A stretch of DNA of 64,000 nucleotides from Nitrospirales bacterium (GTDB lineage: Bacteria; Nitrospirota; Nitrospiria; Nitrospirales; UBA8639): NCBI GenBank assembly GCA_050248735.1, contig JBFWRU010000005.1, positions 39,607-103,606 on the forward strand, given 5' to 3'. The notes beneath the pieces are model-generated. The model was not told the origin of the DNA, did no database searches, and worked only from the letters and a program-made list of their open reading frames with translations. Within the stretch, counting starts at the first letter, position 1. Each line of letters starts with the position of its first letter. The position numbers and the translations under genes were made by a program. This document shows, in pieces, positions 16,885-64,000 of this stretch.

Positions 16885-16912
16885 CGCATCACCACTTGCT
16901 GAACTCTGATTG

Positions 16913-17477: not shown

Positions 17478-17932
17478 TGAGCAAACACATTCTTTTCATG
17501 ACCGTATCGATTTTCTTATTGGGTTCACTTACCCTCTGGGCACAATTCCAGGATCCACGACACACTGGCATCACGACCGTGTCTGCCGCTCAAGAGGTCA
17601 AGGATGATACCTGGGTGACTCTTAGCGGCACCATTCTTCGCCAACTAGGCGAGGAACGCTATCTGTTCCAGGATGCCACGGGGACGATGGTCGTCGAGAT
17701 TGATCACGAGGACTGGGAAAATGTCACCGCCGATCCGAAAACGATCCTCCGCATCTCGGGAGAAATCGACCGGGATTGGTTGACGACGGAAATGGAGGTG
17801 GAACGGGTCGAGACGGAGAACGTTTCAAGCCCGGGCGTAAGTCAGTTTCAACAGAACTCTTCCGATCAGACCAACCCAATTGACGGAATGCAGACTTCAA
17901 GCCGACGCGTCAGTCTGCTTCAACTGCATTGA
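17478..17932 (+). CDS. YgiW/YdeI-family (BOF) periplasmic stress-tolerance OB-fold protein
   Basis: RBS AAGGAGAAG 5 nt upstream of the ATG at 17478, plus a signal peptide. The core VSAAQEVKDDTWVTLSGTILRQLGEERYLFQDATGTMVVEIDHEDW is colinear with YgiW. Confidence 0.75.
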
Positions 17933-24337: not shown

Positions 24338-24353
24338 TGGCATCCCCCTTGCT
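24338..24353 (+). promoter_or_regulatory. Sigma-54 (-24/-12) promoter
   Basis: TGGCATCCCCCTTGCT has the GG-N10-GC spacing of consensus TGGCAC-N5-TTGCW. It lies 52 nt upstream of the ATG at 24406 and inside the over-extended ORF-track start (24277). Confidence 0.75.
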
Positions 24354-35055: not shown

Positions 35056-35071
35056 TGGCATTTCCTTTGCT
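35056..35071 (+). promoter_or_regulatory. Sigma-54 (-24/-12) promoter
   Basis: TGGCATTTCCTTTGCT lies 37 nt upstream of the ATG at 35109 and inside the over-extended ORF-track frame that starts at 34959. Confidence 0.75.
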
Positions 35072-48116: not shown

Positions 48117-49487
48117 TCACGAATCTTTATGTTCCATTTCGGCCAATTTCCGATAGAGGGTTTTTCGGTCAATGCCCAACACCTGAGCCGTTTGATATTT
48201 GTTGCCTCCCATTTTTTCCAGCACCCGTCTGATATACGCATGCTCCAGTTCGGCGAGGGGTAACATCTGCTCGGCGGCATCTTCAATGATCTGTCCTTCG
48301 CCCGTTATCTCCCGAATTCCCGAAGGCAGGTCGTCCAACACCACTTTCTGCCCCTGCGTCAGGGTCGCGGCCCGCTCAAGGACGTTTTCCAATTCCCGGA
48401 CATTGCCGGGCCAGTCATAATCCATTAACCGGGCCATGGCGGAATCAGCCACCCCCACCACCTGTTTTTCTTGAGCGGAAGGACTTTTCTGGAGGAGCCC
48501 GTGAGCTAACAGGGGAATATCCCCCCGTCGTTCCCGCAACGGCGGCAATCGAAGCTCAATCACGTTGAGTCGGTAATACAAATCCTCGCGAAACCGTTTG
48601 GCTTTCACCTCTTCCGCCAGTTTCACATTGGTCGCCGCAATGATTCGGACATTGATCGAAAGGGATTTGGTGGCCCCAACTCTCCGGATTTCCCGCTCCT
48701 GAACCGCTCGCAGCAATTTGGCTTGCAACATCATAGGCATTTCACTGATTTCATCAAGAAATAGAGTGCCGCCCTGGGCTTCTTCAAACAACCCGCGCTT
48801 ATCGGATTTCGCATCGGTAAAAGCCCCTCGCACATGACCGAACAATTCACTTTCCAACAAAGTTTCAGGAATCGCGGCACAATTCACCGGCACAAAAGGC
48901 GCTCCCCGCCGTTGACTATTGAAATGAATGGCCTTTGCCACTAATTCCTTTCCGGTCCCGCTTTCTCCCGTGATCAGAATATTGGTTTGAGAATCCGCAA
49001 CCCGGCGGATCAGATCAAAAATTTCTTTCATGGGCTTACTTTTTCCGAGAATCTGGTCAAAGGCATATTCCCGGCTGACCTGCTGGCGAAGTCGACGAAC
49101 CTCTTGCCGCAACAACGCCTCGTTCAGGGCCTTCCTGACAGTCACCAGCAATTCTTCGGTTTTAATGGGCTTGGTCAGATAATCAAAGGCCCCCTGCTTC
49201 ATGGCTTCCACTGCGGATTCAACCGTCCCAAAGGCAGTCATCATGACCAGATTGGTTTCAGGATGGATGCGTTGGATCTGCTCAAGCAAATCCAATCCCC
49301 CCATGCCTTTCATCCGCAAATCGGTTAACACCACAAGAAAATGCTCGTGTTCCATATGGTCAATCGCTTCTTGACCATCGGAGGCCACCTGGACGTAATA
49401 CTGTTCCTCCTCCAATAGTTCCTTGAGGAGATGTCGCATTTCTGGCTCATCATCCACGACCAAAATGTTGGGAGCCGATTGAGTCAT
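48117..49487 (-). CDS. Sigma-54-dependent response regulator (NtrC family: receiver, AAA+, Fis-type HTH)
   Basis: ILVVDDEPE...VVLTDLRMKGMGG, Walker A GESGTGKE, the sigma-54 contact loop GAFTDA, and the C-terminal HTH QTAQVLGIDRKTLYRKL. The ATG at 49487 is preceded by GAGGAA. The ORF track starts at 49526. Confidence 0.9.
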   Translation of the reverse strand: MTQSAPNILVVDDEPEMRHLLKELLEEEQYYVQVASDGQEAIDHMEHEHFLVVLTDLRMKGMGGLDLLEQIQRIHPETNLVMMTAFGTVESAVEAMKQGAFDYLTKPIKTEELLVTVRKALNEALLRQEVRRLRQQVSREYAFDQILGKSKPMKEIFDLIRRVADSQTNILITGESGTGKELVAKAIHFNSQRRGAPFVPVNCAAIPETLLESELFGHVRGAFTDAKSDKRGLFEEAQGGTLFLDEISEMPMMLQAKLLRAVQEREIRRVGATKSLSINVRIIAATNVKLAEEVKAKRFREDLYYRLNVIELRLPPLRERRGDIPLLAHGLLQKSPSAQEKQVVGVADSAMARLMDYDWPGNVRELENVLERAATLTQGQKVVLDDLPSGIREITGEGQIIEDAAEQMLPLAELEHAYIRRVLEKMGGNKYQTAQVLGIDRKTLYRKLAEMEHKDS

Positions 49488-49610
49488 GTTAGGTTCCTCG
49501 GAAGATGAATGATCGTTTTTGTGCATAATTTAAATCGGTCCGGTTTTTGGATGGTTTCTAAACAGGGGCCAAACAATCCCTTCACACAAACACTTCATCC
49601 GAACCACTCC

Positions 49611-49776: not shown

Positions 49777-49792
49777 TGGCATTCGTCTTGCT
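49777..49792 (+). promoter_or_regulatory. Sigma-54 (-24/-12) promoter
   Basis: TGGCATTCGTCTTGCT lies 54 nt upstream of the ATG at 49847, divergent from the sigma-54 activator gene. Confidence 0.8.
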
Positions 49793-49846
49793 CTCGTCCC
49801 TTCCGATATGCCATACCAAGCTATTCAACTTTTCTGAAACTTGAAG

Positions 49847-50710
49847 ATGAAAATTATCCTAGCTACCGACGGCTCTCCCTGCTCAACCTTTGCCTTACAA
49901 ACCCTTGCACATTTTGCGCCCCCGGACGAATGTACGCTGGTCCATGCCCTCGCACTTCCCGATCTGAACTATCCCCTCATCACCCCTGACGTAAGGGAAG
50001 AAGCCCAACGGACCATCACCACTCAACTTCGCCAGGAAGGAGAGGAACTGCTGAGACAAGCCCGCGGTCAGATCCCTTCCGACTTTTCCAAAGTGGAATG
50101 TCTCCATCAAATCGGACATCCGGTGGACGTGATTCTGGAAACCGCCAAGTCCTCGCATGCCGATCTGATCCTTTTGGGGGCGAGAGGGCTCGGGCAGTTT
50201 CAAGAATTGATCCTAGGCAGCGTTTCTCACCGGATTGTGCTACATGCCCCATGTTCTACTCTCGTGGTGAAGGCGCCGATCAAACAGGTACAAAAAATTC
50301 TTCTTCCCATTGAAGGAGAAGAGGACGCCAGCATTGCTGTTCAGTTTTTAGGGTTACGGCCTTTCCGCCATGCGGTGGATATTCAGGTATTTAGTGTGTG
50401 GCCCCAACCACAACTCCCCTGGCCCACCACAGTCGGCCAATCTACAATCATGGAAACTCAGGCCTTGGAAGATGCTCAGAGCAAACTGGATGGGGTCACC
50501 CAACGCCTCCTGAAAATGAATTACGCCTGTCAGTCCCAGGTCGGATTAGGCAATCCGGCCTTGGCCATCATGGAACAGGCCAAATCCTTCCAGCCGGATC
50601 TGATTATGATGGGCACTCATCATCGCGGCGGACTCTCGCGGTTTCTCATGGGAAGTGTTTCCCATTCTCTTCATCATCAAACGAACTATCCGATTCTGCT
50701 TGTTCGATAA
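49847..50710 (+). CDS. Tandem universal stress protein
   Basis: MKIILATDGSPCS, GARGLGQFQELILGSVSHRIVLHAPCSTLVV, and a second domain GTHHRGGLSRFLMGSVSHSL. The ORF track starts at the TTG at 49841. Confidence 0.85.
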   Translation: MKIILATDGSPCSTFALQTLAHFAPPDECTLVHALALPDLNYPLITPDVREEAQRTITTQLRQEGEELLRQARGQIPSDFSKVECLHQIGHPVDVILETAKSSHADLILLGARGLGQFQELILGSVSHRIVLHAPCSTLVVKAPIKQVQKILLPIEGEEDASIAVQFLGLRPFRHAVDIQVFSVWPQPQLPWPTTVGQSTIMETQALEDAQSKLDGVTQRLLKMNYACQSQVGLGNPALAIMEQAKSFQPDLIMMGTHHRGGLSRFLMGSVSHSLHHQTNYPILLVR

Positions 50711-50852: not shown

Positions 50853-50868
50853 TGGCATATTGATTGCT
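50853..50868 (+). promoter_or_regulatory. Sigma-54 (-24/-12) promoter
   Basis: TGGCATATTGATTGCT lies 56 nt upstream of the hsp20 ATG at 50925. Confidence 0.8.
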
Positions 50869-50924
50869 ACTTTTGGTGAGTGAAACAGTCACCCAATGGT
50901 GAGTTTAGAGTAAGGAGGATAATC

Positions 50925-51380
50925 ATGGCTGCCGTTACCCGATGGGATCCATTTCGAGAGTTGGACGACCTTCAACACCGTTTATCAACCATGTTTGGCC
51001 GTGCGCCCGTGAGGAAAGAGGGGGAACGCCAGGAAGCTTTGCGTGTGGCTGAGTGGGCACCTCTGGTTGATATTACCGAAGATGCCAAAGAATATCTTAT
51101 TAAAGCCGAACTTCCGGAAATTAAAAAAGAAGAAGTCAAAATCAGCGTACAAAACGATGTGTTGGCCATTTCCGGCGAGAGAAAGTATGAGAAAGAGGAA
51201 AAAGATAAAAAGTTTCATCGGATCGAACGGGCCTACGGAAGTTTTGCGCGAAGCTTTACCATTCCGGAAGACGCCGATCCGGAACGAGTTTCCGCGGAAT
51301 TTGAAAATGGTCTGTTACGCGTGCATATTCCCAAAACCGAACGGGCCAAAACCAAAAGTATTGAGGTGAAAGTGTCCTGA
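50925..51380 (+). CDS. Hsp20/alpha-crystallin family small heat-shock protein
   Basis: RBS TAAGGAGGA upstream. Motifs WDPFRELDDL, PLVDITEDAKEYLIKAELPEIKKEEVKISV, and AYGSFARSFTIPEDAD...ENGLLRVHIPK. Confidence 0.9.
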   Translation: MAAVTRWDPFRELDDLQHRLSTMFGRAPVRKEGERQEALRVAEWAPLVDITEDAKEYLIKAELPEIKKEEVKISVQNDVLAISGERKYEKEEKDKKFHRIERAYGSFARSFTIPEDADPERVSAEFENGLLRVHIPKTERAKTKSIEVKVS

Positions 51381-52064: not shown

Positions 52065-53027
52065 ATGATCAAATTTGCGACCAATATCTTGTTCGCGACG
52101 GATTTTTCCGAAAGTGCGACTCCAGCGTTTCGCTATTCGTTGGAATGGGCCAAAGCCCTCGACTCCTCCCTCACACTACTCAACGTGCAATCGCTCCCAC
52201 TAGGGCTCGATCTGGACGCGTCGGTTTCTCAACGCTTTTTGGACGAACAACGGGAGACCGCCCAGACCAGACTCGAGAGCCTGCTGACCGAAACCCGTAG
52301 GGAGATTTCCTCCGCAACCGCCCAACACCTGACCGGCATGCCTTCCGAACAAATTTGTCAATTCGCCAGGGACAAGCATTGCGACCTGATCATCATGGGC
52401 ACGCATGGATGGTCGGGAATCGATCGGGTGTTATTCGGAAGCGTGACCGAGCGGGTCATTGCCCGGGCTCCCTGTCCCGTCCTGTCAATCCCGCTTCGGA
52501 AAGCGGAGGAAATCGCCGCTATGCATACGTTAAACCCGACTCCTCGGCATATCATTCTGCCGCTCGATTTTTCAGAATGCGCTCTTGAAGCCTATGAATT
52601 CGCCGTCCAGATTGCCAAATGGTTCGATTCGGCTTTGACCTTGGTATATGCCATTGAACCATTGTCCTATAGTTTGGACTTCACATTGACCCACCCTCTT
52701 CAGGACAAAGCAAACAGAAAGAAAGTGCAGGACCGACTGGTCGAACTGACGGAAGTGCTGACCAAACAGGGAATGACCGCGGAGTATGAAGTACTGGAAA
52801 AACCGGCCATGGATGCGGCATTCGAAACAAGCACGACCAGGCAGGCGGACCTGATCGTCATGGGCACGCACGGACGAAAAGGGTTGTCAAAGCTCGTGAT
52901 GGGCAGCGTGACCGGAAAGGTGTTGCAACACAGTCCTTATCCGGTCCTGACCGTCAAAAGCCCGAAATTTGAGGGAGGACACCATCAAGGTTCTGACACC
53001 AGACAGGGGGCCAAAGCACAAAGATAA
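52065..53027 (+). CDS. Tandem universal stress protein
   Basis: NILFATDFSESA, GTHGWSGIDRVLFGSVTERVIARAPCPVLSI, and a second domain GTHGRKGLSKLVMGSVTGKVLQHSPYPVLTV. Confidence 0.85.
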   Translation: MIKFATNILFATDFSESATPAFRYSLEWAKALDSSLTLLNVQSLPLGLDLDASVSQRFLDEQRETAQTRLESLLTETRREISSATAQHLTGMPSEQICQFARDKHCDLIIMGTHGWSGIDRVLFGSVTERVIARAPCPVLSIPLRKAEEIAAMHTLNPTPRHIILPLDFSECALEAYEFAVQIAKWFDSALTLVYAIEPLSYSLDFTLTHPLQDKANRKKVQDRLVELTEVLTKQGMTAEYEVLEKPAMDAAFETSTTRQADLIVMGTHGRKGLSKLVMGSVTGKVLQHSPYPVLTVKSPKFEGGHHQGSDTRQGAKAQR

Positions 53028-53044: not shown

Positions 53045-54403
53045 ATGACCCAACAGAACACCCCGGTACCGGTTCCCAACAAGGAAGGGTTACAACACCT
53101 TCTGGTCCGGTTAGCCAAACAATCCCAACAGAGTGACTTCCAGGCCCAACGCCAATCGGCGCTGAGCCTGGCTCTGGAACCCTATTTGGATCCTCTCACC
53201 GCGCAATATCTTTCTCCCCTCGAAGAAGAAATTCAGTTGGCCGAATGGTATCTCGTTGCGGATTACTTCCCGACGGATGGGCATCCCTCTCTGATCGAGC
53301 AAATCCGCGACACGATCACCGAGCATGTCCCCGAAGAAGAACGCCTATGGCTTGATCCGGTCCGACATTCGTATATGGATGTATTGACCATCCTGAACGC
53401 CGATTCATCTACCACACCCAATCGTCTTGACCTCCAATCCCTGGGGGACCAACAACAGTTTCAGGTTACCTATCCGATTAACCCCGCACTCCAGAAAAAC
53501 CGGGTGCTGCTCACCAGGCTCATACGGGGACCATCCGTCACCTACCTTCCCGGACCGCCCCTGATTCTGTCAGAAGCCATGGGGAACGTCCTCATGACCT
53601 TCGCTCAGGCCCTGAGGCGACACATTGAATTCAACACGGGAAACTTTGCGCTTGCCGAGTGGCCGGAATTCTCCAAGCAATACGGTTATCTCTTGATTTG
53701 GAGTCTGGCCAGGCTCAGAGGCGGGACCATGACCGCGGCCGATCAGCAGGTGACGTACTGGACTGAATCAGGCCAGCCGTTTTTGTATGCCATTGCCCTG
53801 TATGCGCATTGCGAGTTTCGAAGCTTGGCAACAGGATTGAACGAATGGAAACAGCTGCGTCCCCACCCCCACAATCATTCCATTGACCCTACGAACACTA
53901 AACCATCGGACCTTCGCGAATGGATCGAACTCAGCCCAAAATCGGACAGGCCTTCGTACGCAGTTGCCCGTCTGACCCTGACTCCGACCCAACTGATCGT
54001 TGAGGCAGATTCGGCTGCACGCCTGGATGACCTCAAACATCAATTGGCAGCCACCTTTGGATTCTCCCTGCACTTTAAGGGAGAAACGCTGACGCCTCCA
54101 TCCCACTCCCCGCCACACGTGGATTTATTGGCGACGGAATATGTAGCCCCTCCTGTCACTGTTTCGGTGAAAGAGGAAACCAGGCTGTTATCCTCGTTTC
54201 TCGAGAAAGTCTATTTGGAATGGGCGGAACAACCTAGCCCAACTCTCAACAATGAGACTCCCCGCCATTACGGCCGGGATGTCCAAGGTAAACAAGCGGT
54301 CGCCGCCCTGATCGACCAGATGGAAACACACGATCTGGGCCTTCGACGGACGGGGAAACCGGCATACGATTACCAGACCCTTCGATCACACATCGGCATT
54401 TAG
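53045..54403 (+). CDS. Hypothetical 452-aa soluble protein, family not recognised
   Basis: Long clean ORF lying 17 nt after the usp gene and 14 nt before hydB. There are no TM segments or catalytic motifs I can name. Confidence 0.7.
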   Translation: MTQQNTPVPVPNKEGLQHLLVRLAKQSQQSDFQAQRQSALSLALEPYLDPLTAQYLSPLEEEIQLAEWYLVADYFPTDGHPSLIEQIRDTITEHVPEEERLWLDPVRHSYMDVLTILNADSSTTPNRLDLQSLGDQQQFQVTYPINPALQKNRVLLTRLIRGPSVTYLPGPPLILSEAMGNVLMTFAQALRRHIEFNTGNFALAEWPEFSKQYGYLLIWSLARLRGGTMTAADQQVTYWTESGQPFLYAIALYAHCEFRSLATGLNEWKQLRPHPHNHSIDPTNTKPSDLREWIELSPKSDRPSYAVARLTLTPTQLIVEADSAARLDDLKHQLAATFGFSLHFKGETLTPPSHSPPHVDLLATEYVAPPVTVSVKEETRLLSSFLEKVYLEWAEQPSPTLNNETPRHYGRDVQGKQAVAALIDQMETHDLGLRRTGKPAYDYQTLRSHIGI

Positions 54404-54417
54404 GATAGGCTATCCCT

Positions 54418-55539
54418 ATGGATGCAGACACGGAACAACTTCATGTCCCCAAACTCCTGCTCCGCGCAGATTTCCCGCAACTCCTTCAGGCACTCAGGAA
54501 GCTCGGCTATCACATTATCGGGCCGGTGTTGTCACAAGGATCAATCCAATGGAAGGAAGTTCATGCGGTCGAGGATCTGCCGGTCGGATGGAAAGACCAC
54601 CAGGAGCCGGGACACTATCGACTGGAACCGGATCCCGCTCCTCGCTACTTCAATGTGGTGCATGGCCCGGAGTCGCTCAAATCTCTCACGTTTGCGCGGC
54701 GAGAAACCCTCCTGGTCCTGGACCGACGGGACAACACATTCTCAGCCAAAGAAATCCATCCCGACATCCAACCAACTGCCGTCTTGGGAGTTCGAGCGTG
54801 TGACCTGGCCGGCCTGGCCATTCAGGACACCATATTCTTGAATGGCACCTATCCTGATCCCTATTACCAACAGCGTCGGGACCAACTGTTCCTTGTGGCC
54901 GTCAACTGTACCAGGGCCCTATCAACCTGTTTTTGCGCATCAATGAAGACAGGGCCAAAGGCTGAAGAAGGGTACGATCTCAGTCTCACGGAAGCGGATG
55001 AAGATTTTCTGATTGAGGCTGGGAGCCAGGCAGGGGTGAAAGTCCTGGAACAACTGCCCTGTTCAGTCGCACCACAAGAACGGATGACCCAGGACGAGGA
55101 ACGAATAACAGCCTGCGCATCGAGTCAAACCCGAAACCTGCCCCAGTCGGCGTTACCGGATGTCCTGTATGAAGCCCACGACCACCCCCGGTGGGATCAA
55201 GTCGCTACACGCTGTTTATCCTGCACCAATTGTACAATGGTCTGCCCAACCTGCTTCTGCCACGGCGTGGAGGAGACACCCTCACTCGATGCTCAACACA
55301 CGGAACATACCCGTGTATGGGATTCCTGCTTCACATCCGATCACGGGTATATCCACGGGAAAAATTTCCGTCCCACCACCAAAGACCGCTATCGCATGTG
55401 GCTCACACACAAACTCGCTACCTGGGTCGATCAATTCGGTATGTCAGGCTGCGTCGGATGCGGGCGCTGCATCACCTGGTGCCCGGTAGGCATCGACCTC
55501 ACGGAAGAAGTCCGAGTCCTCTCCCAACCGCCTCAATAA
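54418..55539 (+). CDS. hydB: 4Fe-4S cluster subunit, sulfhydrogenase beta (HydB)/AsrA-like
   Basis: 373 aa with [16 protein letters not shown] and [14 protein letters not shown] ferredoxin-type motifs. The N-terminal domain is colinear with AsrA/HydB-type proteins. Confidence 0.7.
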
Positions 55540-55652
55540 CTTGACCTTTCACGGTCTCTACCTACCCTGTCTTGAGGCAATCCTCTGAAAACAATCGGGG
55601 TTATCCTTCCCGTTAACGAAGTATCGCCACAGGGATTCACAACTCTCTTTTT

Positions 55653-56060
55653 TTAACGGCCGGTTGGAGTTTGAGTCTGCCCCGGCTGAGTCGGCAACGT
55701 CACGCAAGGCCCGCAGTTTTCAGTGTGCGCATATTCCGGCTCACCTGGTCCGCTGAGACATTTGACCATCTTTTGACTGCAGGTCATCACCCCATCCTGA
55801 CCATTCACTTTACAGGCACGACTGACGGTTGAAGTGGTCACCGGAGCGACAGATCCATTTGCACAGTAAGGATCGGCTGGTGGAGATGGCATCCCACCGC
55901 CTCCCTTCTTTCCTAAACCTTGAATTTCATCGGATTGGAATGGTTTCACATCCTTTCGCTCCATTTCCATTTCCCTCGCCTGAATCAGATCGATTGAAAC
56001 TCCCGCCAACAGAAACATTCCCAACATGGCCATGACGAAACCGCTTCCCTGGCTTTTCAT
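55653..56060 (-). CDS. Small secreted Cys-rich hypothetical protein
   Basis: RBS AAGGGAGG upstream of the ATG at 56060, signal peptide MKSQGSGFVMAMLGMFLLAGVSIDLIQA. The mature part has six Cys and a P/T/Q-rich tail. Confidence 0.5.
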   Translation of the reverse strand: MKSQGSGFVMAMLGMFLLAGVSIDLIQAREMEMERKDVKPFQSDEIQGLGKKGGGGMPSPPADPYCANGSVAPVTTSTVSRACKVNGQDGVMTCSQKMVKCLSGPGEPEYAHTENCGPCVTLPTQPGQTQTPTGR

Positions 56061-56369
56061 AATTCTTGCCTCCCTTAATAACTTTGAACATGTTGCGATT
56101 CTCATGCTCCCCGCAAAATGCAGGTCTTGTCCCAGGGAAATTCTGAACAAAAAAAGACAACATTCTCATTGAATTTCAATAATCGATGGTGACGAATTCA
56201 GTTGTTTGAGAAAGAGGTGATGAACCAAACGGATACCCCCCTGTATCAATTCGGATACCCCGAAGAACGAGCAGAGAGTTTTAGAAAGAAGGGCTGATGA
56301 GGCAGAAACTGGCCGGCTTAAAAATGAAGAAGGAGGTAATGGTGAAGAGAGACGTAGCTCAGGGATTTG

Positions 56370-56777
56370 CTACATTCGTTTCTTCATATGCTCCATAAGA
56401 TCTTTTCGAAACTTTTCCATCGCGCCATGGGCATCCGGCTGAATCATTTTAACACCGCTGGCAATCAACACTTTGGCAATACCCCCGCAGATGGCCAACA
56501 ACAATATGCAGAAAAACACCCCCGTTACATAATAAAATGAATCCGGCACGATGATGGCCTCCGATGAAGCCTTGATCGTGATCGTAATGGATTCCAGAGG
56601 AATGAGATTGGACACGATCTCCCTGACGCCATCCCCGGTGATCAACTGGTAAATGATGGTCACCACCCATGCTGCCAAACCTACCCCAAGTCCAAGAAGA
56701 ATCATCCCCATCGTCCTCGTATGATTACCGGACTTGTCAGGCTCGGTAGGGTCTGGCCAATTCGGATCCATCATCAT
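56370..56777 (-). CDS. Hypothetical 2-TM membrane protein
   Basis: 135-aa ORF lying 48 nt downstream of the EncFtn-like gene on the same strand. It has two hydrophobic helices. Confidence 0.55.
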   Translation of the reverse strand: MMMDPNWPDPTEPDKSGNHTRTMGMILLGLGVGLAAWVVTIIYQLITGDGVREIVSNLIPLESITITIKASSEAIIVPDSFYYVTGVFFCILLLAICGGIAKVLIASGVKMIQPDAHGAMEKFRKDLMEHMKKRM

Positions 56778-56825
56778 GACCCTTAATTCAGGAAAATAAG
56801 ATGATCAGGGTGGGGTGCCGCCTGG

Positions 56826-57113
56826 CTACTTGTGCGCGATAGACTTCTCCGTAAACAGATAGGCCTTTAATTCCTTGGAGAAAGCCGAATCCTTGCGTCG
56901 AATCCATTCCAGCACCATCGCCGCATGCTCTTTCTCCTCATCTCGATTGTGCTTGAGAATCGCCTTCAGTTCCTCGTCCTTGCACGCATCAGCACGCTGG
57001 TTATACCAATCAACAGCCTCCAGCTCTTCCATTAACGAAACAATAGCTCTATGCATATCGCGCGTTTCATTCGACAACTCCTCGATGGGCTCGTGATAAC
57101 CAACGCTAGCCAT
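56826..57113 (-). CDS. Encapsulated-ferritin (EncFtn)-like ferritin-like protein, lacking a C-terminal encapsulin-targeting peptide
   Basis: 95 aa with HRAIVSLMEELEAVDWYNQR and HNRDEEKEHAAMVLEWIRR, colinear with the Rhodospirillum rubrum EncFtn ferroxidase-centre segments. The protein ends at YLFTEKSIAHK. Confidence 0.8.
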   Translation of the reverse strand: MASVGYHEPIEELSNETRDMHRAIVSLMEELEAVDWYNQRADACKDEELKAILKHNRDEEKEHAAMVLEWIRRKDSAFSKELKAYLFTEKSIAHK

Positions 57114-57407
57114 ATTACCCTCCTATCATGTTAATGCGATAACGAAAATGAAATCACGGGATCGGCGAATACCCCGCAAATAAAACCGGGATTTTCACCA
57201 TACGCCACTGAGTCTAAGAAGAGGCCTGCAGGATGTCAAACACTTTTCCGGTAAAACCGAATTCCGGAATTCTGCCAATTCTCAATCAAGCACTTGCCCA
57301 AAATGGCCTTGGATAGAGAGCAGGCTGTCAACGCGTTTTTCCCAACTGGGGCTTCAGGTGAACTCCTTGAAAAGCCTGACTAGAGGATCGCACCCCTGGC
57401 TTTCCTT

Positions 57408-57782
57408 TTAGGAAGCGGCAAAAGCGTTATCGATAACATATAACCAGGAACCATCCGGCTGTTTCCGGACAACTTCTGCGGTGTGTGAGAAAAATTCGAT
57501 GGGTTGATGATCGGGGCCGGTGGCAACCAGGCGCCAGGAGGCTTGGAGAAGCGCCAGGTCACCGGCTTGGTGGCAGGAGAGCGTTTCGATCTGCATCCGT
57601 CCGTTGAGATTAAGAAAGACCATGAGTGCTTCCCGAATACCAGCATGGCCAACCACCTGTTGTCCCGGCTGAGGAACAAGAACAGCATCCGGCTCATACA
57701 AGGCGATCAAATCATCCATCTTTCCGGCATTGAAGGCCTCCGCAAAGGCGGCATGCATTTTCTGAGGATCGTTCACTTTCAT
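57408..57782 (-). CDS. SnoaL/DUF4440-like (NTF2-fold) protein
   Basis: 124 aa with FAEAFNAGKMDDLIALYEPDAVLV...DGSWLYVID, typical of NTF2-like small proteins. Confidence 0.7.
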   Translation of the reverse strand: MKVNDPQKMHAAFAEAFNAGKMDDLIALYEPDAVLVPQPGQQVVGHAGIREALMVFLNLNGRMQIETLSCHQAGDLALLQASWRLVATGPDHQPIEFFSHTAEVVRKQPDGSWLYVIDNAFAAS

Positions 57783-57896
57783 AGAATTTCCTGTTCCACT
57801 TCTTCCCCAATACCCATTAAGAGGTCAGGCTCGATTGACACCAATACCGGCATGGTCATTTCTGGTCTCATCCATTTCAAGGGTTAGATGGCAGAT

Positions 57897-58160
57897 CTAT
57901 CTTTCACGATAGACCTCTCGTCGATGTCCTACTTTCACCACAATGACCACGAGATCCTGGTCCTGTATTTCGTATACGATTCGATACATGCCCTGCCGCA
58001 CTCGAAATCTTTCTTGTCCAGATAATTTTTCGCTCTCTTCCGGTCGTGGATCATCCGCTAAAGCGTCAATGCGCTTAAGAATACGATCTAAATCGCGTTG
58101 GGGTATGGATCGAAAATCTTTGGTAACAGACTTTTTAAAGATTAGCCTATATTTGGCCAT
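57897..58160 (-). CDS. Type II toxin, RelE/ParE superfamily
   Basis: 87 aa with YRIVYEIQDQDLVVIVVKVGHRREVY. It overlaps the upstream antitoxin gene by 14 nt. Confidence 0.8.
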   Translation of the reverse strand: MAKYRLIFKKSVTKDFRSIPQRDLDRILKRIDALADDPRPEESEKLSGQERFRVRQGMYRIVYEIQDQDLVVIVVKVGHRREVYRER

Positions 58161-58380
58161 GAGCCTTCAGATCGTTCAGAAGTTCTTCATAGCTGAGCGT
58201 AGGCTCGCTGGCACGCTCCTGGAAAGCAGCCAGATCTTCCTGATCCTCGGCCAGGGCCAATCGTACGGCATCATTGACGATGTCGGAGACGGACCTATTG
58301 GTGTGTGCAGCCTTAATTCGCAGGGCAGCATGAAGATTTTCATCGAAGTAGACTGTCGACCTCTTGGATGTTGTTCCCAT
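58147..58380 (-). CDS. Ribbon-helix-helix (CopG-like) antitoxin
   Basis: 77 aa with an RHH N-terminus STVYFDENLHAALRIKAAHTNRSVSDIVNDAVRLAL and an acidic C-terminal toxin-binding tail. Confidence 0.75.
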   Translation of the reverse strand: MGTTSKRSTVYFDENLHAALRIKAAHTNRSVSDIVNDAVRLALAEDQEDLAAFQERASEPTLSYEELLNDLKAHGQI

Positions 58381-58409
58381 AAATCATGCCTCCTTCCTTC
58401 CATACATCA

Positions 58410-58441
58410 TAGCGCTTTAGCATCAAAACGTCAAAGCGCTA
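58410..58441. promoter_or_regulatory. Inverted repeat TAGCGCTTT-N14-AAAGCGCTA, candidate RHH-antitoxin operator
   Basis: Nine-bp arms at 58410-18 and 58433-41, lying 30-60 nt upstream of the antitoxin start (58380, minus strand). Confidence 0.35.
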
Positions 58442-58509
58442 AAACAACAAAGAGGTTGCAACAGCAAAAATCGCATTACATTTCAAATGCTAATTTATCT
58501 CTGACGCAA

Positions 58510-58812
58510 TCAGTCATAACCATACAGCCATTTGGTCGTGGCATGATGAATGTTTTTGACTGAATGTTGCGCCCTTTTCGGAATGAACACCTCGTCTCCC
58601 GATTCAGCGATGAACGCTTCTCCCTCAATCGTCAATCGCAATTTGCCTTCAACAACAGTGACCAGTTCATTGGTTGTATGGACAAAATCGTTCCATTCCT
58701 TCCCCGGAGGATCGACAAACAGGTTGCACGAATATCCCCGCTTACTCCATGACCGGGCAACCTCATCGCGATTCAGAGGGACAGCAAACTTCTTCGGGGT
58801 GACATATTGCAT
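58510..58812 (-). CDS. Cupin-domain protein
   Basis: About 100 aa with NELVTVVEGKLRLTIEGE..ESGDEVFIPKRAQHSVKN, a cupin beta-barrel pattern. ATG at 58812; the ORF track starts at the TTG at 58839. Confidence 0.7.
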   Translation of the reverse strand: MQYVTPKKFAVPLNRDEVARSWSKRGYSCNLFVDPPGKEWNDFVHTTNELVTVVEGKLRLTIEGEAFIAESGDEVFIPKRAQHSVKNIHHATTKWLYGYD

Positions 58813-58896
58813 GGAATCTTTTCTGATCAGAAGGTTCAAGTTGCAAAGCGGACAGATTGGGGTGCCCCCTTCTCAAGTGAATTCTAAAAAATGGGG

Positions 58897-59382
58897 TCAT
58901 TCAACATGCGATTCAAATATCCAATGATTTCTTGCCCATCCGGCCAGTAGATATCTATCCTCTACTGTTGTACCACTAAACTTCCCGATCCACATCCGCA
59001 TTTTCCGGAAAAGACTATGCACCACTTCTTCTGAATTCCCCTGGAATACCATCACGCGATATGTTGAACGCGAGACAAGTAACTTCTCAAAATCTTCTTT
59101 GATGGCCTTTTCACAGCCCCACTCGCATTCCGCGACAAGTGGTACATCGATAATGTGGCCTTCACGATCAGACTTATACCACACAACGTCGTATAACCAT
59201 TCTTTTCCTTCGTCCGTTTCACATCCATTTGAGGCTGTCAGACAGTCGAATTCTCGTCCAATTCCTATAATTGCGCTCTTGACCGCCACAGACCAACGTT
59301 TTTCACCTTGCCATTTCTCAGCCATAGCCTTCACAGGGATAGCTTGCAAGGCTTTTTGAATTGCATATTCAACGGTATTCAT
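58897..59382 (-). CDS. Hypothetical protein (low-GC cassette, small partner)
   Basis: About 161 aa from the ATG at 59382 (GTG at 59400 in the ORF track). It carries the YDVVW...LVAECEWG...DFEKLL pattern. The family is not recognised. Confidence 0.55.
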   Translation of the reverse strand: MNTVEYAIQKALQAIPVKAMAEKWQGEKRWSVAVKSAIIGIGREFDCLTASNGCETDEGKEWLYDVVWYKSDREGHIIDVPLVAECEWGCEKAIKEDFEKLLVSRSTYRVMVFQGNSEEVVHSLFRKMRMWIGKFSGTTVEDRYLLAGWARNHWIFESHVE

Positions 59383-59529
59383 TAAGTTTCCCACTGCCAC
59401 ATATCACTAGCCCTAAAAGCTGATTAGTGGATCCGCCTGTTCAGCAAGTTATGTCCTGACATCCAATAATTTCGTCGACTATAAATGTTTATTTTGTTCT
59501 CTTGAATGATGGACTTGCACCATCCCCTT

Positions 59530-60678
59530 TTAATCTCTTATGACCTCAACTTTTTCCATTAAAGAACGCTTTTTAATGTAAGCAGGGAATAGCACAGCCA
59601 CAAATGCATGGAATTTGTTTTGAATTAATTCTATCTCCTCCTTAGCCTTTGCGACTTCCTCAGGAGACAGGCGTCCAGTCTGAACCAGATTGAGCACGTG
59701 GTAGGCAACAATAAAATGGGTATCTACCTCTCCCACAATAATTTCTCCTGGGTTTTCTGCCCCCATTTCAAGAGCTTCATTAAATTGCTTCTGGTCGTAA
59801 TGGAAGGAGGATTCGTTCCGAATTTTTTCCAAGATTCCCTTGGTCCTTCGACAAGAAAAAATTGTCCGTCGAAATTCTTCATAGGATTGCGAGACCTCAC
59901 TCTCAAGTTCTGACATAGCAACCGCAAACGATGAAGTATTTTGTCCCTTCTCAAAGATCTCATTCCAAACATTGTGCAAGAATCCGAGTCTTAGCCTATA
60001 CAGAAAAAATTGGCTCCTTTCCTTTTTAGTCAGTGCAATTTCATCTTTTCCTAACGATGCGTTTTCACTCTCTAATAAATCTTTCAATCGCTCAAAATTT
60101 GATAGATCTTCATTCGCCGCAAGTACCATGAGGACATATCTAGATAAATTATCTGTATGGGGAAATAGATCCTTAATTTTAAATTTCCATAATTCATCAT
60201 TCGCATAACTTGGGGATTCCCCCTCAACGTCTATTTTTGTTTTCGCGGGAGAATGAAAATACTTCGCAGAGGGTGTCTTGCTTGGATTCTTTGCAAAGAA
60301 ATCATTCACCAGATACCAGCCAACCTTTGAGAACACCAAAAGCCAACACAACAAAATGACTATACCCTTAAATTTTAAGTTTGTGTCATAAGGAGGGAAT
60401 TCACGCTGAAATGCACCATCCGCCCATGTGGCGAATACGAAGAAAGGTAGAAATAAGTAGGCCAGCAACGCCCAACCCAACACTATTGCGAAGAGGTAAA
60501 AGAGGATCTTTTTGTAAAATGCTATGCGTACCCCCTCAAAGGATGATGCAGATTCCTTAAGTTTTCCTTCAAATTTCTCAAACCACTGAAGAAGGCGGAT
60601 TAGCGGGGAGGATAGGAGGGCTACTAGAATCGACAGCCCCAGAGATACATTCACATTTGACAACCAATCACCAATCAT
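59530..60678 (-). CDS. Hypothetical 3-TM protein with a large helical cytoplasmic domain (low-GC cassette, large partner)
   Basis: 382-aa clean ORF in a 37-38% GC stretch. It has hydrophobic helices at about aa 10-30, 57-83 and 104-125, and the motif R287-NESSF-H293. The family is not recognised. Confidence 0.65.
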   Translation of the reverse strand: MIGDWLSNVNVSLGLSILVALLSSPLIRLLQWFEKFEGKLKESASSFEGVRIAFYKKILFYLFAIVLGWALLAYLFLPFFVFATWADGAFQREFPPYDTNLKFKGIVILLCWLLVFSKVGWYLVNDFFAKNPSKTPSAKYFHSPAKTKIDVEGESPSYANDELWKFKIKDLFPHTDNLSRYVLMVLAANEDLSNFERLKDLLESENASLGKDEIALTKKERSQFFLYRLRLGFLHNVWNEIFEKGQNTSSFAVAMSELESEVSQSYEEFRRTIFSCRRTKGILEKIRNESSFHYDQKQFNEALEMGAENPGEIIVGEVDTHFIVAYHVLNLVQTGRLSPEEVAKAKEEIELIQNKFHAFVAVLFPAYIKKRSLMEKVEVIRD

Positions 60679-60713
60679 TGTCCTTCTTTTTTCAGATTCG
60701 AAACATTCATTTT

Positions 60714-61555
60714 AGGTAATTAGGGCGAAAGGTAACCAAAATAGATTTTTAGGAACCGTTTAAACAAGGTCTCTGATCGGTGATTAAAACAGTATTCGAT
60801 CTCTTTGAGGTACATCGGGAAATGATATTTCGATACACCTCGATAGTGATCCAAAATATGTTTTGCATAACTCCAAAATCCTTCGATCCCATGATGTGGT
60901 TCTTCACGCATCGACGGCCCACAAAGCTTTTTGAATGGTTAATCGTATGATGTTTCCCATAGTGCTTCAAGGACTGCTATCCCCGAAACGCATCGGTGCA
61001 AGATACCGAGCCTCTCCGGGTTTTGGCTTGGATATGCCGCATGAGTTCCTTTGCACTGACCGATTCCAGCAATTTGGTATAGACGCGTTTTTCCCGCTCC
61101 AGGAGCCCACACACGACACTCTTGCCCGCCGCGACTCGGCCGCGTTTGCCCTTCCGACGCCCCCCCCCGCAATAGGCTTCGTCCAGCTCGATCTCCCCTT
61201 TGAGTTTGCCACCCTCCAACTCGGCCAAATGATACAGGGCTTCCCGGAGTCGCTGGTAGACGCGGGTAACCACTTTGACGTCGGCTTACCGGTCTCGACT
61301 CAACCGGTAAGCCGGTTGGAGCAGATAGAAACCCTGCAGGATCGCGATCTCCCGCCGAAGACGACTGAGACTTTTGCTTTTGCCACAGAGCTGGCATTTC
61401 ACATAGCCTCGACTGGCGAGCAAGACCTGAAAAGATCCACAGAAAATGCACTTCCGGCCACGCAAAAATTTGTCCGCACAACTGAAAGCGGTGTTTCGTC
61501 CCATAACCATGCGCCTGTTCTCGCACACACTGGTTACGAAACACCCTAATTACCT
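60714..61555 (-). mobile_element. Decayed IS1595-family insertion sequence (842 bp) with imperfect terminal inverted repeats
   Basis: The left end AGGTAATTAGGGCGAAAGGTAACCA (60714-38) matches the reverse complement of the right end (61531-55), AGGTAATTAGGGTGTTTCGTAACCA, at 20 of 25 positions. The ends enclose the transposase fragments. No clear target-site duplication was seen. Confidence 0.7.
60720..61528 (-). pseudogene. IS1595-family (ISXO2-like) transposase, disrupted by several frameshifts
   Basis: The gene is split into four fragments in different frames. They are an N-terminal zinc ribbon (61286..61528, CIFCGS..KCQLCGK), a middle part (60977..61273, LDEAYCGGG..), a short piece (YGKHHTINHSKSFV, 60749..60970 frame) and a C-terminal part (60720..60911, IEGFWSYAKH..YLKEIEYCFNHR). 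Confidence 0.7.
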
Positions 61556-61793
61556 TCTTATTTATGAACCTTATCAGGAATTGGCTTTGAAATTGTCGTT
61601 TACAGCATGAGCACACCCCAATCCCATTATTTTTGAGGAGATTGGCTACAATGAATTTTTACTATCATTTGGGAATTTTCAGAACCAGGGAAAATCCGAC
61701 GGATTCATTTTGATATGATGGGCCATTCTTTGAATGTGATTCCGATGAAAAATCGTGGGAATGATAAGGCCTAGGCAAACACCAGGGGTCAAG

Positions 61794-61832
61794 TTTTTGT
61801 ATTATCGTGCATTATGCACAATAATACAAAAA
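61794..61832 (-). terminator. Near-perfect 39-nt AT-rich palindrome immediately after the ParE-like toxin stop (bidirectional terminator-like hairpin)
   Basis: TTTTTGTATTAT-c-GTGCAT-t-ATGCAC-a-ATAATACAAAAA has 18 paired positions with one mismatch and A/T runs forming the stem ends. It lies 5 nt from the stop codon at 61838. Confidence 0.4.
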
Positions 61833-61837
61833 GACCG

Positions 61838-62131
61838 TTAGAGCCTGCCCAGCCAGTATTGAGGGCGACGCCGACTGTGTGCCACCGCCAGCACTTGAAC
61901 ACTGCCCGAGGCTTCTCGAAACAAGACCGCAAACGGGAACCGCTTCATTCGGATGCGCCTGACATTCGGTTGTTTTTCAACCGGATATCTGTGCGGCGCG
62001 TCACAGACTGTGCGCATGATTCTTTCAAACTCGGCAAGATACGAAGCACCCAGCCCGGGCCTTTTTGATTCAAAGAACGCCACGGACTCCAGATGCTCTG
62101 CCTCTGCGGCAGGATGAAACCCATAACTCAT
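61838..62131 (-). CDS. Type II toxin, ParE/RelE family
   Basis: 97 aa with FHPAAEAEHLESVAFF...RFPFAVLFREASGSVQVLAVAHSRRRPQYW. ATGA-type 4-nt overlap with the antitoxin. Confidence 0.75.
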   Translation of the reverse strand: MSYGFHPAAEAEHLESVAFFESKRPGLGASYLAEFERIMRTVCDAPHRYPVEKQPNVRRIRMKRFPFAVLFREASGSVQVLAVAHSRRRPQYWLGRL

Positions 62132-62352
62132 CTAAGCAAGGCCTGTGCTTTTTTTCTGACCTCTTCTGCCGGGATTGCCTGCACAGTGCCCTCGTCCAGC
62201 TCTCTGGCCCGGCGGTGCGCATCGGCCAGCCAATCTTCTTCTATTTCGGCGATAGTTGGTGCATCAAGGCTTAAGAGAAGTTTCTGTGCCAACTCTGCTC
62301 TTTCTTCCTCGGATAAATGAAGGGCTTCCTTTTCTATTTGCTTCAGGTTCAT
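62128..62352 (-). CDS. Addiction-module antitoxin (TIGR02574-like)
   Basis: 74 aa with LSEEERAELAQKLLLSLD...EEDWLADAHRRARELDEG, typical of this antitoxin class. Confidence 0.7.
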   Translation of the reverse strand: MNLKQIEKEALHLSEEERAELAQKLLLSLDAPTIAEIEEDWLADAHRRARELDEGTVQAIPAEEVRKKAQALLR

Positions 62353-62662
62353 ATCTTTCTCCTCTTTTATGTTTTTTCTCGCTCTAATATTAATTAGTCT
62401 ACTTCTCTTATCAAGGGTGATAAGTGTATGAATTTAGCATATTAAGAGCAAGCCAATATTGCACGGAAAACCTCAAAAATCCAATTCCTGCTGGAGGATA
62501 TGCATGGACTATGCAGATGGAATTGTTCGAACTTAAACATAAGTTATTCCATCCGCCTTGAAGGACAACTCACCAAGCGGATGCCCACCAAGGACAAGGA
62601 TATGAATAGTCCATTGGATAGGTCACTCCCGTAGTTCTCACCTATCTCATTGGCCACTTAAT

Positions 62663-62678
62663 TGGCTCTGAATTTGCT
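62663..62678 (+). promoter_or_regulatory. Candidate sigma-54 promoter upstream of hydG
   Basis: TGGCTCTGAATTTGCT has correct GG-N10-GC spacing and a perfect -12 TTGCT, with A to T in the -24 element. It lies 180 nt upstream of the ATG at 62859 in an AT-rich spacer. Confidence 0.35.
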
Positions 62679-62858
62679 AGTACATACCTAAAAGTCTTCA
62701 ATTCCGACATTTTGAGGCGAAATGCTACATTGGGGTTTTGCCCAAACGGATGAGGTTTCCGCAAAAGAAGATTGAAGTGCTGCACGTGGTTATGCTGACA
62801 TCCTGGAATTCTGAAAAAGCGCATTGACGAATTGGTCCCAAAGAGCCCGGCTTATGGC

Positions 62859-63695
62859 ATGACTCATAATCCCTACCTCATTCATCCGGCAATCATTGTG
62901 GACAAGAAGCAGGAGTCCACCGATATTGTGACGTTTCGACTGCAGTTGACTGACCCAACTCACCGGGAGTCTTTCCGGTTTGAGGCGGGACAATTCAATA
63001 TGCTGTATGTCTTCGGTGTGGGCGAGGTGGCCATCTCTATCGTGTCAGACCCCGACGAACCGAAATTTCTGGACCACACCATTCGTATAGTGGGCAGAGT
63101 CACACAGGTTTTAGGAAACATGCAGACAGGTGAATCTGTAGGAGTCCGTGGTCCATTTGGAATGGGATGGCCCATGAAGGAAGCCCAAGGGAAAGACGTG
63201 CTTATCGTCACAGGCGGCTTGGGTTGTGCCCCGGTAGTCGGGGCCATTGAATATATGTTCCGCAGGCGCGAGGAATATGGGAACATGACCATTCTCCACG
63301 GCGTGAAGACCCCTCACGACCTGCTCTACCGGGAACGCTTCGATGCCTGGAGGCATCAACCCCGCACACAAGTCCTGCTGACCAGCGATGAACCCGGCAA
63401 GACCTGGCATAGTCATGTGGGAGTGGTTACCGAATTGTTTGACCAACTGCAGGTGGACCCTGATAACACCCTCGTCATGATGTGTGGTCCGGAAATCATG
63501 ATGCGGATTGCCTGTAATACGTTATCCCATCAGGGCCTGCGTCCCGACTCCATGTATGTGTCCCTGGAGCGGCATATGGAGTGCGGCATCGGGCTCTGCG
63601 GACATTGTCAGCTTGGGCCGTTCTTTGTCTGCAAAGACGGGCCGGTCATGCGTTTGGACCGGCTGATTCCCTTTTTGGGTAAAGTAGGGGTGTAA
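62859..63695 (+). CDS. hydG: FAD/NAD(P)-binding plus 2Fe-2S subunit, sulfhydrogenase gamma (HydG)/AsrB-like
   Basis: NPYLIHPAIIVDKKQESTDIVTFRL, FRFEAGQFNMLYVFGVGE, VTGGLGCAPV, and the C-terminal CGIGLCGHCQLG cluster motif. ATG at 62859; the ORF track starts at the TTG at 62832. Confidence 0.8.
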   Translation: MTHNPYLIHPAIIVDKKQESTDIVTFRLQLTDPTHRESFRFEAGQFNMLYVFGVGEVAISIVSDPDEPKFLDHTIRIVGRVTQVLGNMQTGESVGVRGPFGMGWPMKEAQGKDVLIVTGGLGCAPVVGAIEYMFRRREEYGNMTILHGVKTPHDLLYRERFDAWRHQPRTQVLLTSDEPGKTWHSHVGVVTELFDQLQVDPDNTLVMMCGPEIMMRIACNTLSHQGLRPDSMYVSLERHMECGIGLCGHCQLGPFFVCKDGPVMRLDRLIPFLGKVGV

Positions 63696-63742: not shown

Positions 63743-64000
63743 ATGACAGGCATAACCAGCGATACACAGCATTCACCACGCAGGCCTCGCCCACGAATTG
63801 CGGTGGTAAAGTTTGCTTCATGCGACGGGTGCCAGTTGAGTATCCTGAATATGGAAGACGACCTGCTGGCCTTGGGAGAGGCCCTCGATATCGCCTACTT
63901 TCCCGAAGCCTCCAGCGACATGCAGCCCGGACCCTATGATATCGCTTTCGTGGAAGGCTCCATCACCTGCCCGGAGGATTTGCCACGCATACTTGAAATC
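63743..64000 (+). CDS. hydD: [NiFe]-hydrogenase small (delta, NuoB-like) subunit, 5' part only
   Basis: The ORF runs off the right edge, so it is absent from the ORF track. My translation is MTGITSDTQHSPRRPRPRIAVVKFASCDGCQLSILNMEDDLLAL...YDIAFVEGSIT, which shows the typical proximal-cluster Cys pair. Confidence 0.75.
   Translation, partial: MTGITSDTQHSPRRPRPRIAVVKFASCDGCQLSILNMEDDLLALGEALDIAYFPEASSDMQPGPYDIAFVEGSITCPEDLPRILEI

Follow-up and report, generated by a model that had tools for sequence, protein, structure and literature searches.

In a 64,000-nt stretch of the genome of a nitrite-oxidising Nitrospirales bacterium (GenBank assembly GCA_050248735.1, contig JBFWRU010000005.1, positions 39,607 to 103,606 of the forward strand; hereafter the window), the genes of a [NiFe] hydrogenase of the group 3b type are split: hydB ends at 55539, hydG starts at 62859 and is followed by hydD, and the 7.3 kb between them (55540-62858) carry a block of accessory genes on the opposite strand, as a sequence-only reading of this DNA had described. 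From the comparison with related loci, we consider it probable that this block is the local version of a flexible accessory islet, which occupies the hydB-hydG junction in a lineage-IV-like (UBA8639-type) clade, and that the split of the operon is tolerated and compensated. The ancestral arrangement would have been Usp2-unk452-hydB-hydG-hydD-hydA, with ~20 bp from hydB to hydG. After the split, hydB would have stayed at the 3' end of the upstream unit and would be transcribed together with Usp2 and unk452, and hydGD(A) would be transcribed from a sigma-54 promoter of its own, located in the spacer upstream of hydG.

The two flanks of the block are, as predicted from subunit matches rather than from a formal HydDB class, parts of one group 3b-type hydrogenase. 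The hydB gene (54418-55539, plus strand) encodes the predicted beta (AsrA-like Fe-S) subunit, which matches Fer4_22 (E 3e-33), the NCBIfam model sulfhyd_HydB (2e-50; the best NCBIfam models being sulfhyd_HydB, ShyB and AsrA) and, as the top solved structure, PDB 9nez_B, 'Sulfhydrogenase 1 subunit beta' (8e-45). The hydG gene (62859-63695, plus strand) encodes the predicted gamma subunit (FAD/NAD(P)/2Fe-2S) with FAD_binding_6, NAD_binding_1 and DHODB_Fe-S_bind domains, and the product matches the NCBIfam models for hydrogenase gamma (1e-65) and sulfhyd_HydG (4e-53). Its ATG at 62859 is in register with the orthologue starts in the alignment; an exact-protein look-up of HydG with two start choices returned no record. 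The hydD gene (63743-64000, plus strand), for the putative small subunit, is cut by the window end after its 5' part, and the first 85 aa of HydD match Oxidored_q6 with E 1e-5, which is below the Pfam cut-off, and are 79% identical to the full-length HydD of one relative (L005). The flanks were assigned to one enzyme because the orthologous loci run unk452-hydB-hydG-hydD-hydA free of gaps; the sequence-only reading had assumed the same, and the gene at 54418 is indeed HydB by its family and structure matches. HydA is intact in 11 orthologous loci, six of them split, with the RICGIC and DPCISCATH motifs kept.

The predicted enzyme resembles sulfhydrogenase I of Pyrococcus furiosus (hydBGDA, PDB 9nez) in its AsrA-like beta, FAD/NAD(P)/2Fe-2S gamma and putative NuoB-like delta subunits and, in the orthologous loci, in its NiFe alpha subunit. 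Since the NCBIfam scores are far under the equivalog cut-offs, it is a distant bacterial relative of the P. furiosus enzyme. In contrast to P. furiosus, the genes here are not contiguous: the four-gene operon of the HydBGDA type is broken by 7,319 bp from hydB to hydG, hydB is joined to the Usp2-unk452 unit, and hydGDA has a putative sigma-54 leader. Upstream of hydB, Usp2 (52065-53027, plus strand) and unk452 (53045-54403, plus strand), which encodes a conserved 452-aa protein with no match in Pfam, NCBIfam, PADLOC or PDB, are packed closely (gaps of 17 and 14 bp from Usp2 to unk452 to hydB), and both precede hydB in all ingroup loci. This tight spacing indicates that hydB is the 3' end of the upstream unit. 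The unk452 gene is at the same spot in most Nitrospirales loci, contiguous or split, and is missing there from the hyd loci of other lineages; its product is a possible lineage-specific partner of the hydrogenase.

We collected hydB neighbourhoods from 41 species-representative genomes, several metagenome contigs and the closest protein relatives (loci are numbered L001 onward), and mapped all window proteins onto them; the genes of the relatives were placed by tblastn and open reading frames (ORFs) rather than by a gene caller, and most loci come from metagenome-assembled genomes. One relative, L019 (bin RBC003), was assigned by its authors to sublineage IV, GTDB family UBA8639. In five contiguous ingroup loci (L005, L012, L014, L016, L030), the gene order is Usp-HSP20-cupredoxin-Usp-unk452-hydB-hydG-hydD-hydA with a hydB-hydG gap of 20-29 bp, and the gap is 5-36 bp in the non-Nitrospirales outgroups (L037, L038, L040, L043) and 44-170 bp in most of the distant Nitrospirales. 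The alignment that the sequence-only reading had called for thus found hydB and hydG adjacent in five Nitrospirales loci as well as in outgroups, and this contiguity in the ingroup and outgroups identifies the contiguous arrangement as ancestral and the block as an insertion. Something other than hydG follows hydB in at least 23 of ~29 informative relatives, with gaps from 1.2 to >10 kb. The gap is 1.2-7.8 kb in ten loci (L008, L010, L011, L015, L017, L021, L022, L024, L025, L027), ~10 kb in L023 and >10 kb in L006, L009 and L035; ten more loci have islet or other non-hyd genes after hydB until the sequence ends, and two loci show the hydG leader at their end. The private event implied by the sequence-only reading was therefore not borne out, because this junction is interrupted in most species of the lineage-IV-like clade.

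The content of the junction varies among these loci around recurrent elements. The nearest relatives, L002 (HydB 91% identical) and L003/L006 (82-84%), share with the window the same core order of genes for a Cys-rich protein, a membrane protein, an EncFtn-like ferritin, a SnoaL protein and a ParE/ribbon-helix-helix (RHH) pair; the cupin gene also follows in L003/L006, and the L002 sequence ends before that point. In L003, genes for IS200/IS605-type and IS30-type transposases and other toxin-antitoxin (TA) modules are additionally present. Elsewhere, type A cargo consists of the membrane protein alone or with the Cys-rich protein, and type B cargo of EncFtn and cupin, with or without SnoaL, ParE/RHH, the 382-aa protein described below and ParE/antitoxin, and with no membrane protein; the window's own clade has type A and type B cargo together. 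YoeB/YefM-like and PIN/DUF433-like pairs, an HNH protein and a MalQ-like gene are among the further cargo. Most cargo genes are strongly biased toward the minus strand, with the exceptions of one plus-strand transposase in L003 and plus-strand cytochrome-like genes in L031. The sequence-only reading had taken intervening genes shared with close relatives to speak against an insertion; this applies in part, as the core order is shared by L002 and L003/L006.

These comparisons also bear on whether the block could be a chimera of the assembly or else a disruptive insertion that is recent and confined to this genome, for which its lower guanine-cytosine (GC) content (46.4% versus 52.9% in the remaining window), a remnant of an insertion sequence (IS) and the TA modules could be cited. 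We hold this to be highly improbable and already contradicted by the data. The left junction is reproduced at 100% protein identity by an independent assembly (L001), L002 and L003/L006 share the gene order of the window, and the right module (61631-62518) together with the leader and hydG is colinear with L048 at 83-86% identity. In addition, the IS is decayed, so that the event is not recent.

The expression of hydGD(A) after the split is probably explained by a conserved element in the spacer (62353-62858). The sequence-only reading had described this spacer as a 480-bp, AT-rich, non-coding stretch; it contains no ORF with a family match and has 41.7% GC, but it measures about 506 bp and is not featureless, since it carries the putative hydG promoter. 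A sigma-54 type -24/-12 site, TGGCTCTGAATTTGCT, is located at 62663-62678 (plus strand), ~180 nt upstream of the hydG ATG, and a conserved 22-nt motif, TTTTGAGGCGAAATGCTACATT, follows at 62710-62731 (plus strand). When the regions upstream of hydG of all split loci were aligned, two conserved blocks, TTGGCTTTGAAATTGCT and TTTTTGAGGAAAAAGGCTACACT, stood out in otherwise unalignable DNA. In the first block, GG and GC have the correct register of a textbook -24/-12 element (TGGC-N7-TTGCT), and this element is placed 130-200 nt upstream of hydG. The 22-nt motif has the pattern TTTTGAGG-N6-GCTACAyT, and its start is 46-49 nt past the start of the sigma-54 site in all split loci. The hydG composite occurs at consensus in 14 other split loci, one per locus, and in none of the contiguous loci; beyond that, it is found in the 21-kb fetched loci only as decayed second copies, in the window and in L048. 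TGGC-N7-TTGCT itself occurs five times in the window, where 0.5 is expected, always on the plus strand, and 0 of 100 shuffles reached five. We detected no conserved RNA structure (0 pairs), no Rfam match and no conserved small ORF in the 22-nt motif and hydG leader, and the sigma-70 and terminator scans were not above the shuffled expectation. In L024 (~10990-11270), L047 and L048, the hydG 5' leader contains a hairpin-rich insert of ~100-200 bp, which is miniature inverted-repeat-like and apparently present in two copies in L047.

Both halves of the enzyme appear to be maintained. In pairwise comparisons of the window with its nearest relatives, the ratio of nonsynonymous to synonymous substitution rates (dN/dS) is 0.13-0.17 for hydB and 0.05 for hydG, values by which both genes are judged to be under purifying selection. 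In the split relatives, hydD and hydA are full length, and HydA has no internal stop and keeps both of its motifs. The sequence-only reading had implied that expression of the hydrogenase may be crippled; the conserved sigma-54 site, the purifying selection on both halves and the intact hydD and hydA in split relatives argue instead, at the level of sequence, that the split is compensated. A different outcome would be that hydB was uncoupled by the split and now serves Usp2-unk452 or another partner, with HydGDA working alone or nearing loss. In favour of uncoupling, dN/dS is 0.11-0.22 for hydB versus 0.05-0.07 for hydG, hydB is packed tightly with unk452, hydG is truncated in L013, the L010 locus is broken in three places, the leader is degenerate in L049/L050, and some Nitrospirales group 3b hydrogenases may be non-functional (PMC12342949). 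However, each of 32 HydB sequences has the full set of 16 conserved Cys residues, split loci keep hydB, hydG, hydD and hydA intact as far as their sequence extends, and the coupling of unk452 to hydB is present in contiguous loci too. We consider the uncoupling of hydB to be quite unlikely.

Two relatives are further stages of operon break-up. In L013 (2793-3102), hydG is truncated after ~110 aa and is followed by a cupin gene and a MalQ-like gene. In the L010 locus (11753-17751), hydB is partially duplicated, hydG is separated from hydD by 1.4 kb, and a piece of an IS1595 element lies between hydD and hydA.

Returning to the islet at the hydB-hydG junction, its phylogeny indicates that the left and right flanks have different histories. 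In the unk452 tree, the window (with L017) joins clade A in 200 of 200 bootstraps, and a five-gene concatenate of the left flank places it in clade A in 182 of 200. In the HydG tree, by contrast, it joins clade B in 179 of 200, with a distance of 0.077 to B versus 0.157 to A, and the window HydG is closest to the type B relatives (92-93%). The outgroup distances are equal for all groups, which makes a rate artefact unlikely. The cargo echoes this discordance, in that the genes on the left are of the A/W type and those on the right of the B type.

Within the right part of the block, the hydG leader is present a second time in decayed form (61580-61755, plus strand); this copy matches the type B hydG leaders of L034, L025, L024 and L027 with 73-76% identity over ~175 bp (E 8e-31 to 2e-20). 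It reads TTGGCTTTGAAATTGTC, in which the -12 GC is lost, and then TTTTTGAGGAGATTGGCTACAAT, with a copy of the 22-nt motif at 61631-61653. Together with the copy at 62663, the ParE/antitoxin module is thus bracketed by two leaders. The same two-leader layout is present in L048, where the block corresponding to 61631-62518 is 86% identical and the cupin, the low-GC cassette and the IS are absent; these are therefore later gains in the line of the window or losses in L048. The discordant flanks and the duplicated leader point, as far as sequence comparison can tell, to recombination and nested insertions. Islet turnover would proceed by nested insertions (IS1595, TA modules, the low-GC cassette) and by homologous recombination between lineages with the hyd genes as arms, and the window locus would be a mosaic, with the left flank of one lineage type and hydG and the right islet of another. 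Clades A, B and W have homologous leaders. The contiguous loci nested among the split ones must therefore have arisen by secondary replacement, or else the islet spread laterally through recombination in the hyd genes, and the data are compatible with either.

All recognisable genes between hydB and hydG are on the minus strand according to the ORF map and the family scans, and their identities are those first described in the sequence-only reading. Next to hydB is the gene for a Cys-rich secreted protein of 135 aa with a signal peptide (55653-56060), which has orthologues in L002, L003/L006, L017 and L049, followed by that for a 135-aa membrane protein (56370-56777), the most frequent islet gene among the type A relatives. 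A separate sigma-54-like site, TGGGACAAGACCTGCA, precedes the Cys-rich gene at 56119-56134 (minus strand), of which GG and GC are kept in L002, L006, L017 and L049, and a conserved palindrome, GTATCcgaattGATAC, is located at 56243-56258, ~110 nt upstream of this site. Since GTATCcgaattGATAC is unlike the palindromes of the Usp and HSP20 promoters, another activator probably acts at the Cys-rich gene. The EncFtn-like ferritin (95 aa, 56826-57113, minus strand) matches PF22277 (E 3e-44) and is 87-97% identical across relatives; against TIGR04535 it scores 134 bits (cut-off 125) with profile positions 1-88 of 114 covered, so that the C-terminal extension is missing. No encapsulin shell-like gene was found among the islet ORFs, and the ferritin is thus without a shell neighbour.

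Further toward hydG, the minus strand encodes a SnoaL/NTF2-like protein (57408-57782), a ParE/RelE-type toxin (57897-58160) with an RHH antitoxin (58147-58380), and a Cupin_2 protein (58510-58839). Next comes a low-GC (41%) cassette for two proteins without a family match, of 167 aa (58897-59400, minus strand) and 382 aa (59530-60678, minus strand). The 382-aa protein is 91.6% identical in the L023 islet and 64% identical in L025, and gave no tblastn match in plasmids; the 167-aa protein gave no match in any fetched locus. The HydB of L023 is only 75% identical even though the 382-aa cassette protein is 91.6% identical. The identity of the 382-aa protein suggests a recent lateral exchange of cargo between islets. 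For the two low-GC proteins, the Cys-rich protein and the membrane protein, no family was found in PADLOC, NCBIfam or Pfam.

The cassette is followed by an 842-bp IS1595-family element (60714-61555, minus strand) with 25-nt inverted repeats (60714, 61531) that are 80% complementary. Its transposase is in three frame pieces, two of which match PF12762 (3e-11 and 2e-4) and the third a zinc ribbon weakly; with the frame broken in three, we regard it as a decayed copy. Beyond the decayed leader copy are a ParE toxin gene (61838-62131, minus strand) and an Unstab_antitox antitoxin gene (62128-62352, minus strand). A 19-nt near-perfect palindrome, TTTTTGTATTATCGTGCAT/ATGCACAATAATACAAAAA, is located at 61794-61832, directly downstream of the ParE gene and inside the block in common with L048. 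The IS remnant, the TA modules, the low-GC cassette and the duplicated leader agree with the view of the sequence-only reading that the block is nested inserted DNA.

The recurrence of some of these genes raises the alternative that the core islet genes (Cys-rich, membrane, EncFtn, SnoaL, cupin) are not accessory cargo but form a functional module of the same stress or low-oxygen regulon that works with the hydrogenase, the handling of iron or redox being one example. Many species have these genes at the junction, EncFtn is 87-97% and cupin 77-85% identical where HydB is only 74-82%, and a conserved sigma-54 site with an upstream palindrome is specific to the Cys-rich gene. On the other hand, no islet gene is common to all split loci, the junction of contiguous relatives lacks all of these genes, and they lie on the opposite strand, interspersed with TA modules, IS elements and low-GC DNA. 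We therefore judge a functional module unlikely.

Flexible genomic islets and integration hotspots between core genes, as well as the splitting of operons by inserted genes, are general concepts. The locus has the marks of such an islet, namely constant core flanks, variable cargo rich in TA modules and IS elements, lower GC and discordant flank phylogenies. It differs from them in that the hotspot is inside a former 20-bp intra-operon junction, that no integrase, tRNA or att-type repeat accompanies it, and that the hydG-proximal edge is a conserved putative promoter module. A tRNA scan found no tRNA, so that the block is not a tRNA-linked island; no integrase was found among the window ORFs scanned, no meaningful direct or inverted repeats flank the whole block (no flanking direct repeat of at least 16 nt), and Rfam gave no match on 55400-63000 up to E=1. 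The block thus lacks the features of a classical integrative island (integrase, tRNA, att-type repeats).

The putative hydG promoter has counterparts upstream of the hydB unit, next to candidate regulators. A PAS/HisKA/HATPase_c sensor kinase identified with Pfam (45941-47914, minus strand), which is in the same place in L003 and L005, adjoins an NtrC-type enhancer-binding protein with Response_reg, Sigma54_activat (E 9e-74) and HTH_8 domains (48117-49526, minus strand), the synteny of which is also kept in L003 and L005. Both genes are upstream of and divergent from Usp1/HSP20, and the regulator is 13 kb upstream of hydG. Upstream of Usp1 (49841-50710) is a sigma-54 type site, TGGCATTCGTCTTGCT, at 49777-49792 (plus strand), with a palindrome, TGTTGCAtagTGCAACA, at 49646, ~130 nt upstream of the site; similarly, a sigma-54 type site, TGGCATATTGATTGCT, is present at 50853-50868 (plus strand) upstream of HSP20 (50880-51380), with a palindrome, TGTGGCCATCTGCCACA, at 50738 upstream of the site. 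The Usp1 and HSP20 sites are kept in nearly all Nitrospirales loci. Two more exact TGGC-N7-TTGCT sites are present in the window at 24338-24353 and 35056-35071 (plus strand).

Usp and HSP20 would be driven by sigma-54 promoters like that of hydG, with the adjacent kinase and NtrC-type activator as candidate regulators. With such like promoters and neighbouring regulators, the two halves of the hydrogenase would most likely be co-regulated in one stress or low-oxygen regulon rather than co-transcribed, and the balance of the subunits would rest on co-regulation instead of co-transcription. More tentatively, we can imagine, as a possibility that we do not favour, that the hydB-hydG junction is a 'landing pad' for recombination, that the sigma-54 site and the 22-nt motif, the latter of a kind not described before, form a portable module at its hydG-proximal edge, which lets the lineage take up, lose and swap cargo time and again without losing the enzyme, and that the Cys-rich gene, perhaps with EncFtn, was recruited to the same low-oxygen regulon.

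Control of hydrogenase genes by sigma-54 and enhancer-binding proteins is established for FhlA with hyc/hyp in E. coli and for HoxA in Cupriavidus and Bradyrhizobium. As in these systems, a -24/-12 site precedes hydrogenase structural genes, and an NtrC-family activator and a sensor kinase are encoded nearby. Unlike in these systems, the site here occurs only in split-operon genomes, the activator is a candidate predicted from its domains and position, and an extra motif of 22 nt is placed at a fixed distance downstream.

Several observations weigh against a compensated split. The hydG composite is degenerate in three split metagenome loci (L049, L050, L054), where GG and/or GC are lost and hydG is intact; the mutated leader sites are TTGTCTTTGCATTTACG in L049/L050, ~250 nt upstream of hydG, and TTGGACTTGAAATTACT in L054. 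Degenerate sites beside an intact hydG mean that the promoter is not indispensable, that these copies are decaying, or that an alternative promoter is used. We infer that the spacer site is the hydG promoter from its consensus match and conservation alone; no convincing upstream activator site was found at this promoter, and the promoter scans identified no promoter for the cupredoxin-Usp2-unk452-hydB stretch. The reverse complement of the 22-nt motif resembles the Usp1/HSP20 palindromes, a resemblance that was noticed post hoc, and we do not claim a shared activator site for the three promoters from it. The dN/dS of hydB is 2-3 times that of hydG, which could mean relaxed constraint. The trees are neighbour-joining trees of few genes with 200 bootstraps, and a concatenated HydG+HydD+HydA tree with L017 as the sole proxy did not resolve the grouping, so that the discordance is claimed from the window HydG versus unk452 and the left-flank genes. 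The closest relatives do not cover the right junction, since the L002 contig ends early and the islet of L003/L006 exceeds 10 kb. Finally, hydA and the hyp genes of this genome, like rpoN, fall beyond the window.

The proposed regulon can be compared with a described member of lineage IV. In Nitrospira marina, the group 3b hydrogenase and the Usp proteins beside up-regulated operons rise at low O2 (PMC8115632), which fits, by analogy, the low-oxygen regulon proposed here. The locus resembles the group 3b loci of N. marina and other nitrifiers (PMC8115632, PMC12342949), which belong to the same order, with N. marina in the related lineage IV, and have Usp genes beside hydrogenase-related clusters; unlike here, N. 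marina was described with a four-subunit operon. Group 3b hydrogenases are uncharacterised in Nitrospirales (PMC12342949). Neither PMC8115632 nor PMC12342949 reports a split at hydB-hydG or sigma-54, and we found no report of either in Nitrospira in the literature. The kind of enzyme (group 3b, similar to P. furiosus sulfhydrogenase I) is already known, as are hydrogenases controlled by sigma-54 and operons that are split at hotspots. For a lineage-wide flexible islet in hydBGDA, a promoter module marking split genomes and the 22-nt motif at a fixed distance, we found no description in the literature.

In nitrifier genomes, a group 3b hydrogenase is routinely taken to indicate alternative H2 or redox metabolism. 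Because the operon is usually split in this clade, pipelines that need a contiguous hydBGDA will report partial or missing enzymes. The leader, the kinase and activator, and the Usp/HSP20 sites suggest how the enzyme may be switched on, with low oxygen or stress as the likely signal by analogy with the N. marina proteomics. In addition, the locus provides a natural series of an operon surviving a cut, with contiguous, split-with-promoter, promoter-decayed and gene-decayed states.

A separate insert at the same junction was observed in a distant GC-rich Nitrospirales lineage, where L077 (7050-9930; also L062, L068, L079) has a co-oriented insert of ~2.98 kb between hydB and hydG. As judged by eye from the ORF translations, it apparently encodes an NAD(P) transhydrogenase similar to pntAA/pntAB/pntB, with an overlap between its first gene and the hydB stop. 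In contrast to the opposite-strand islet of the window, the insertion in L077 is in-operon.

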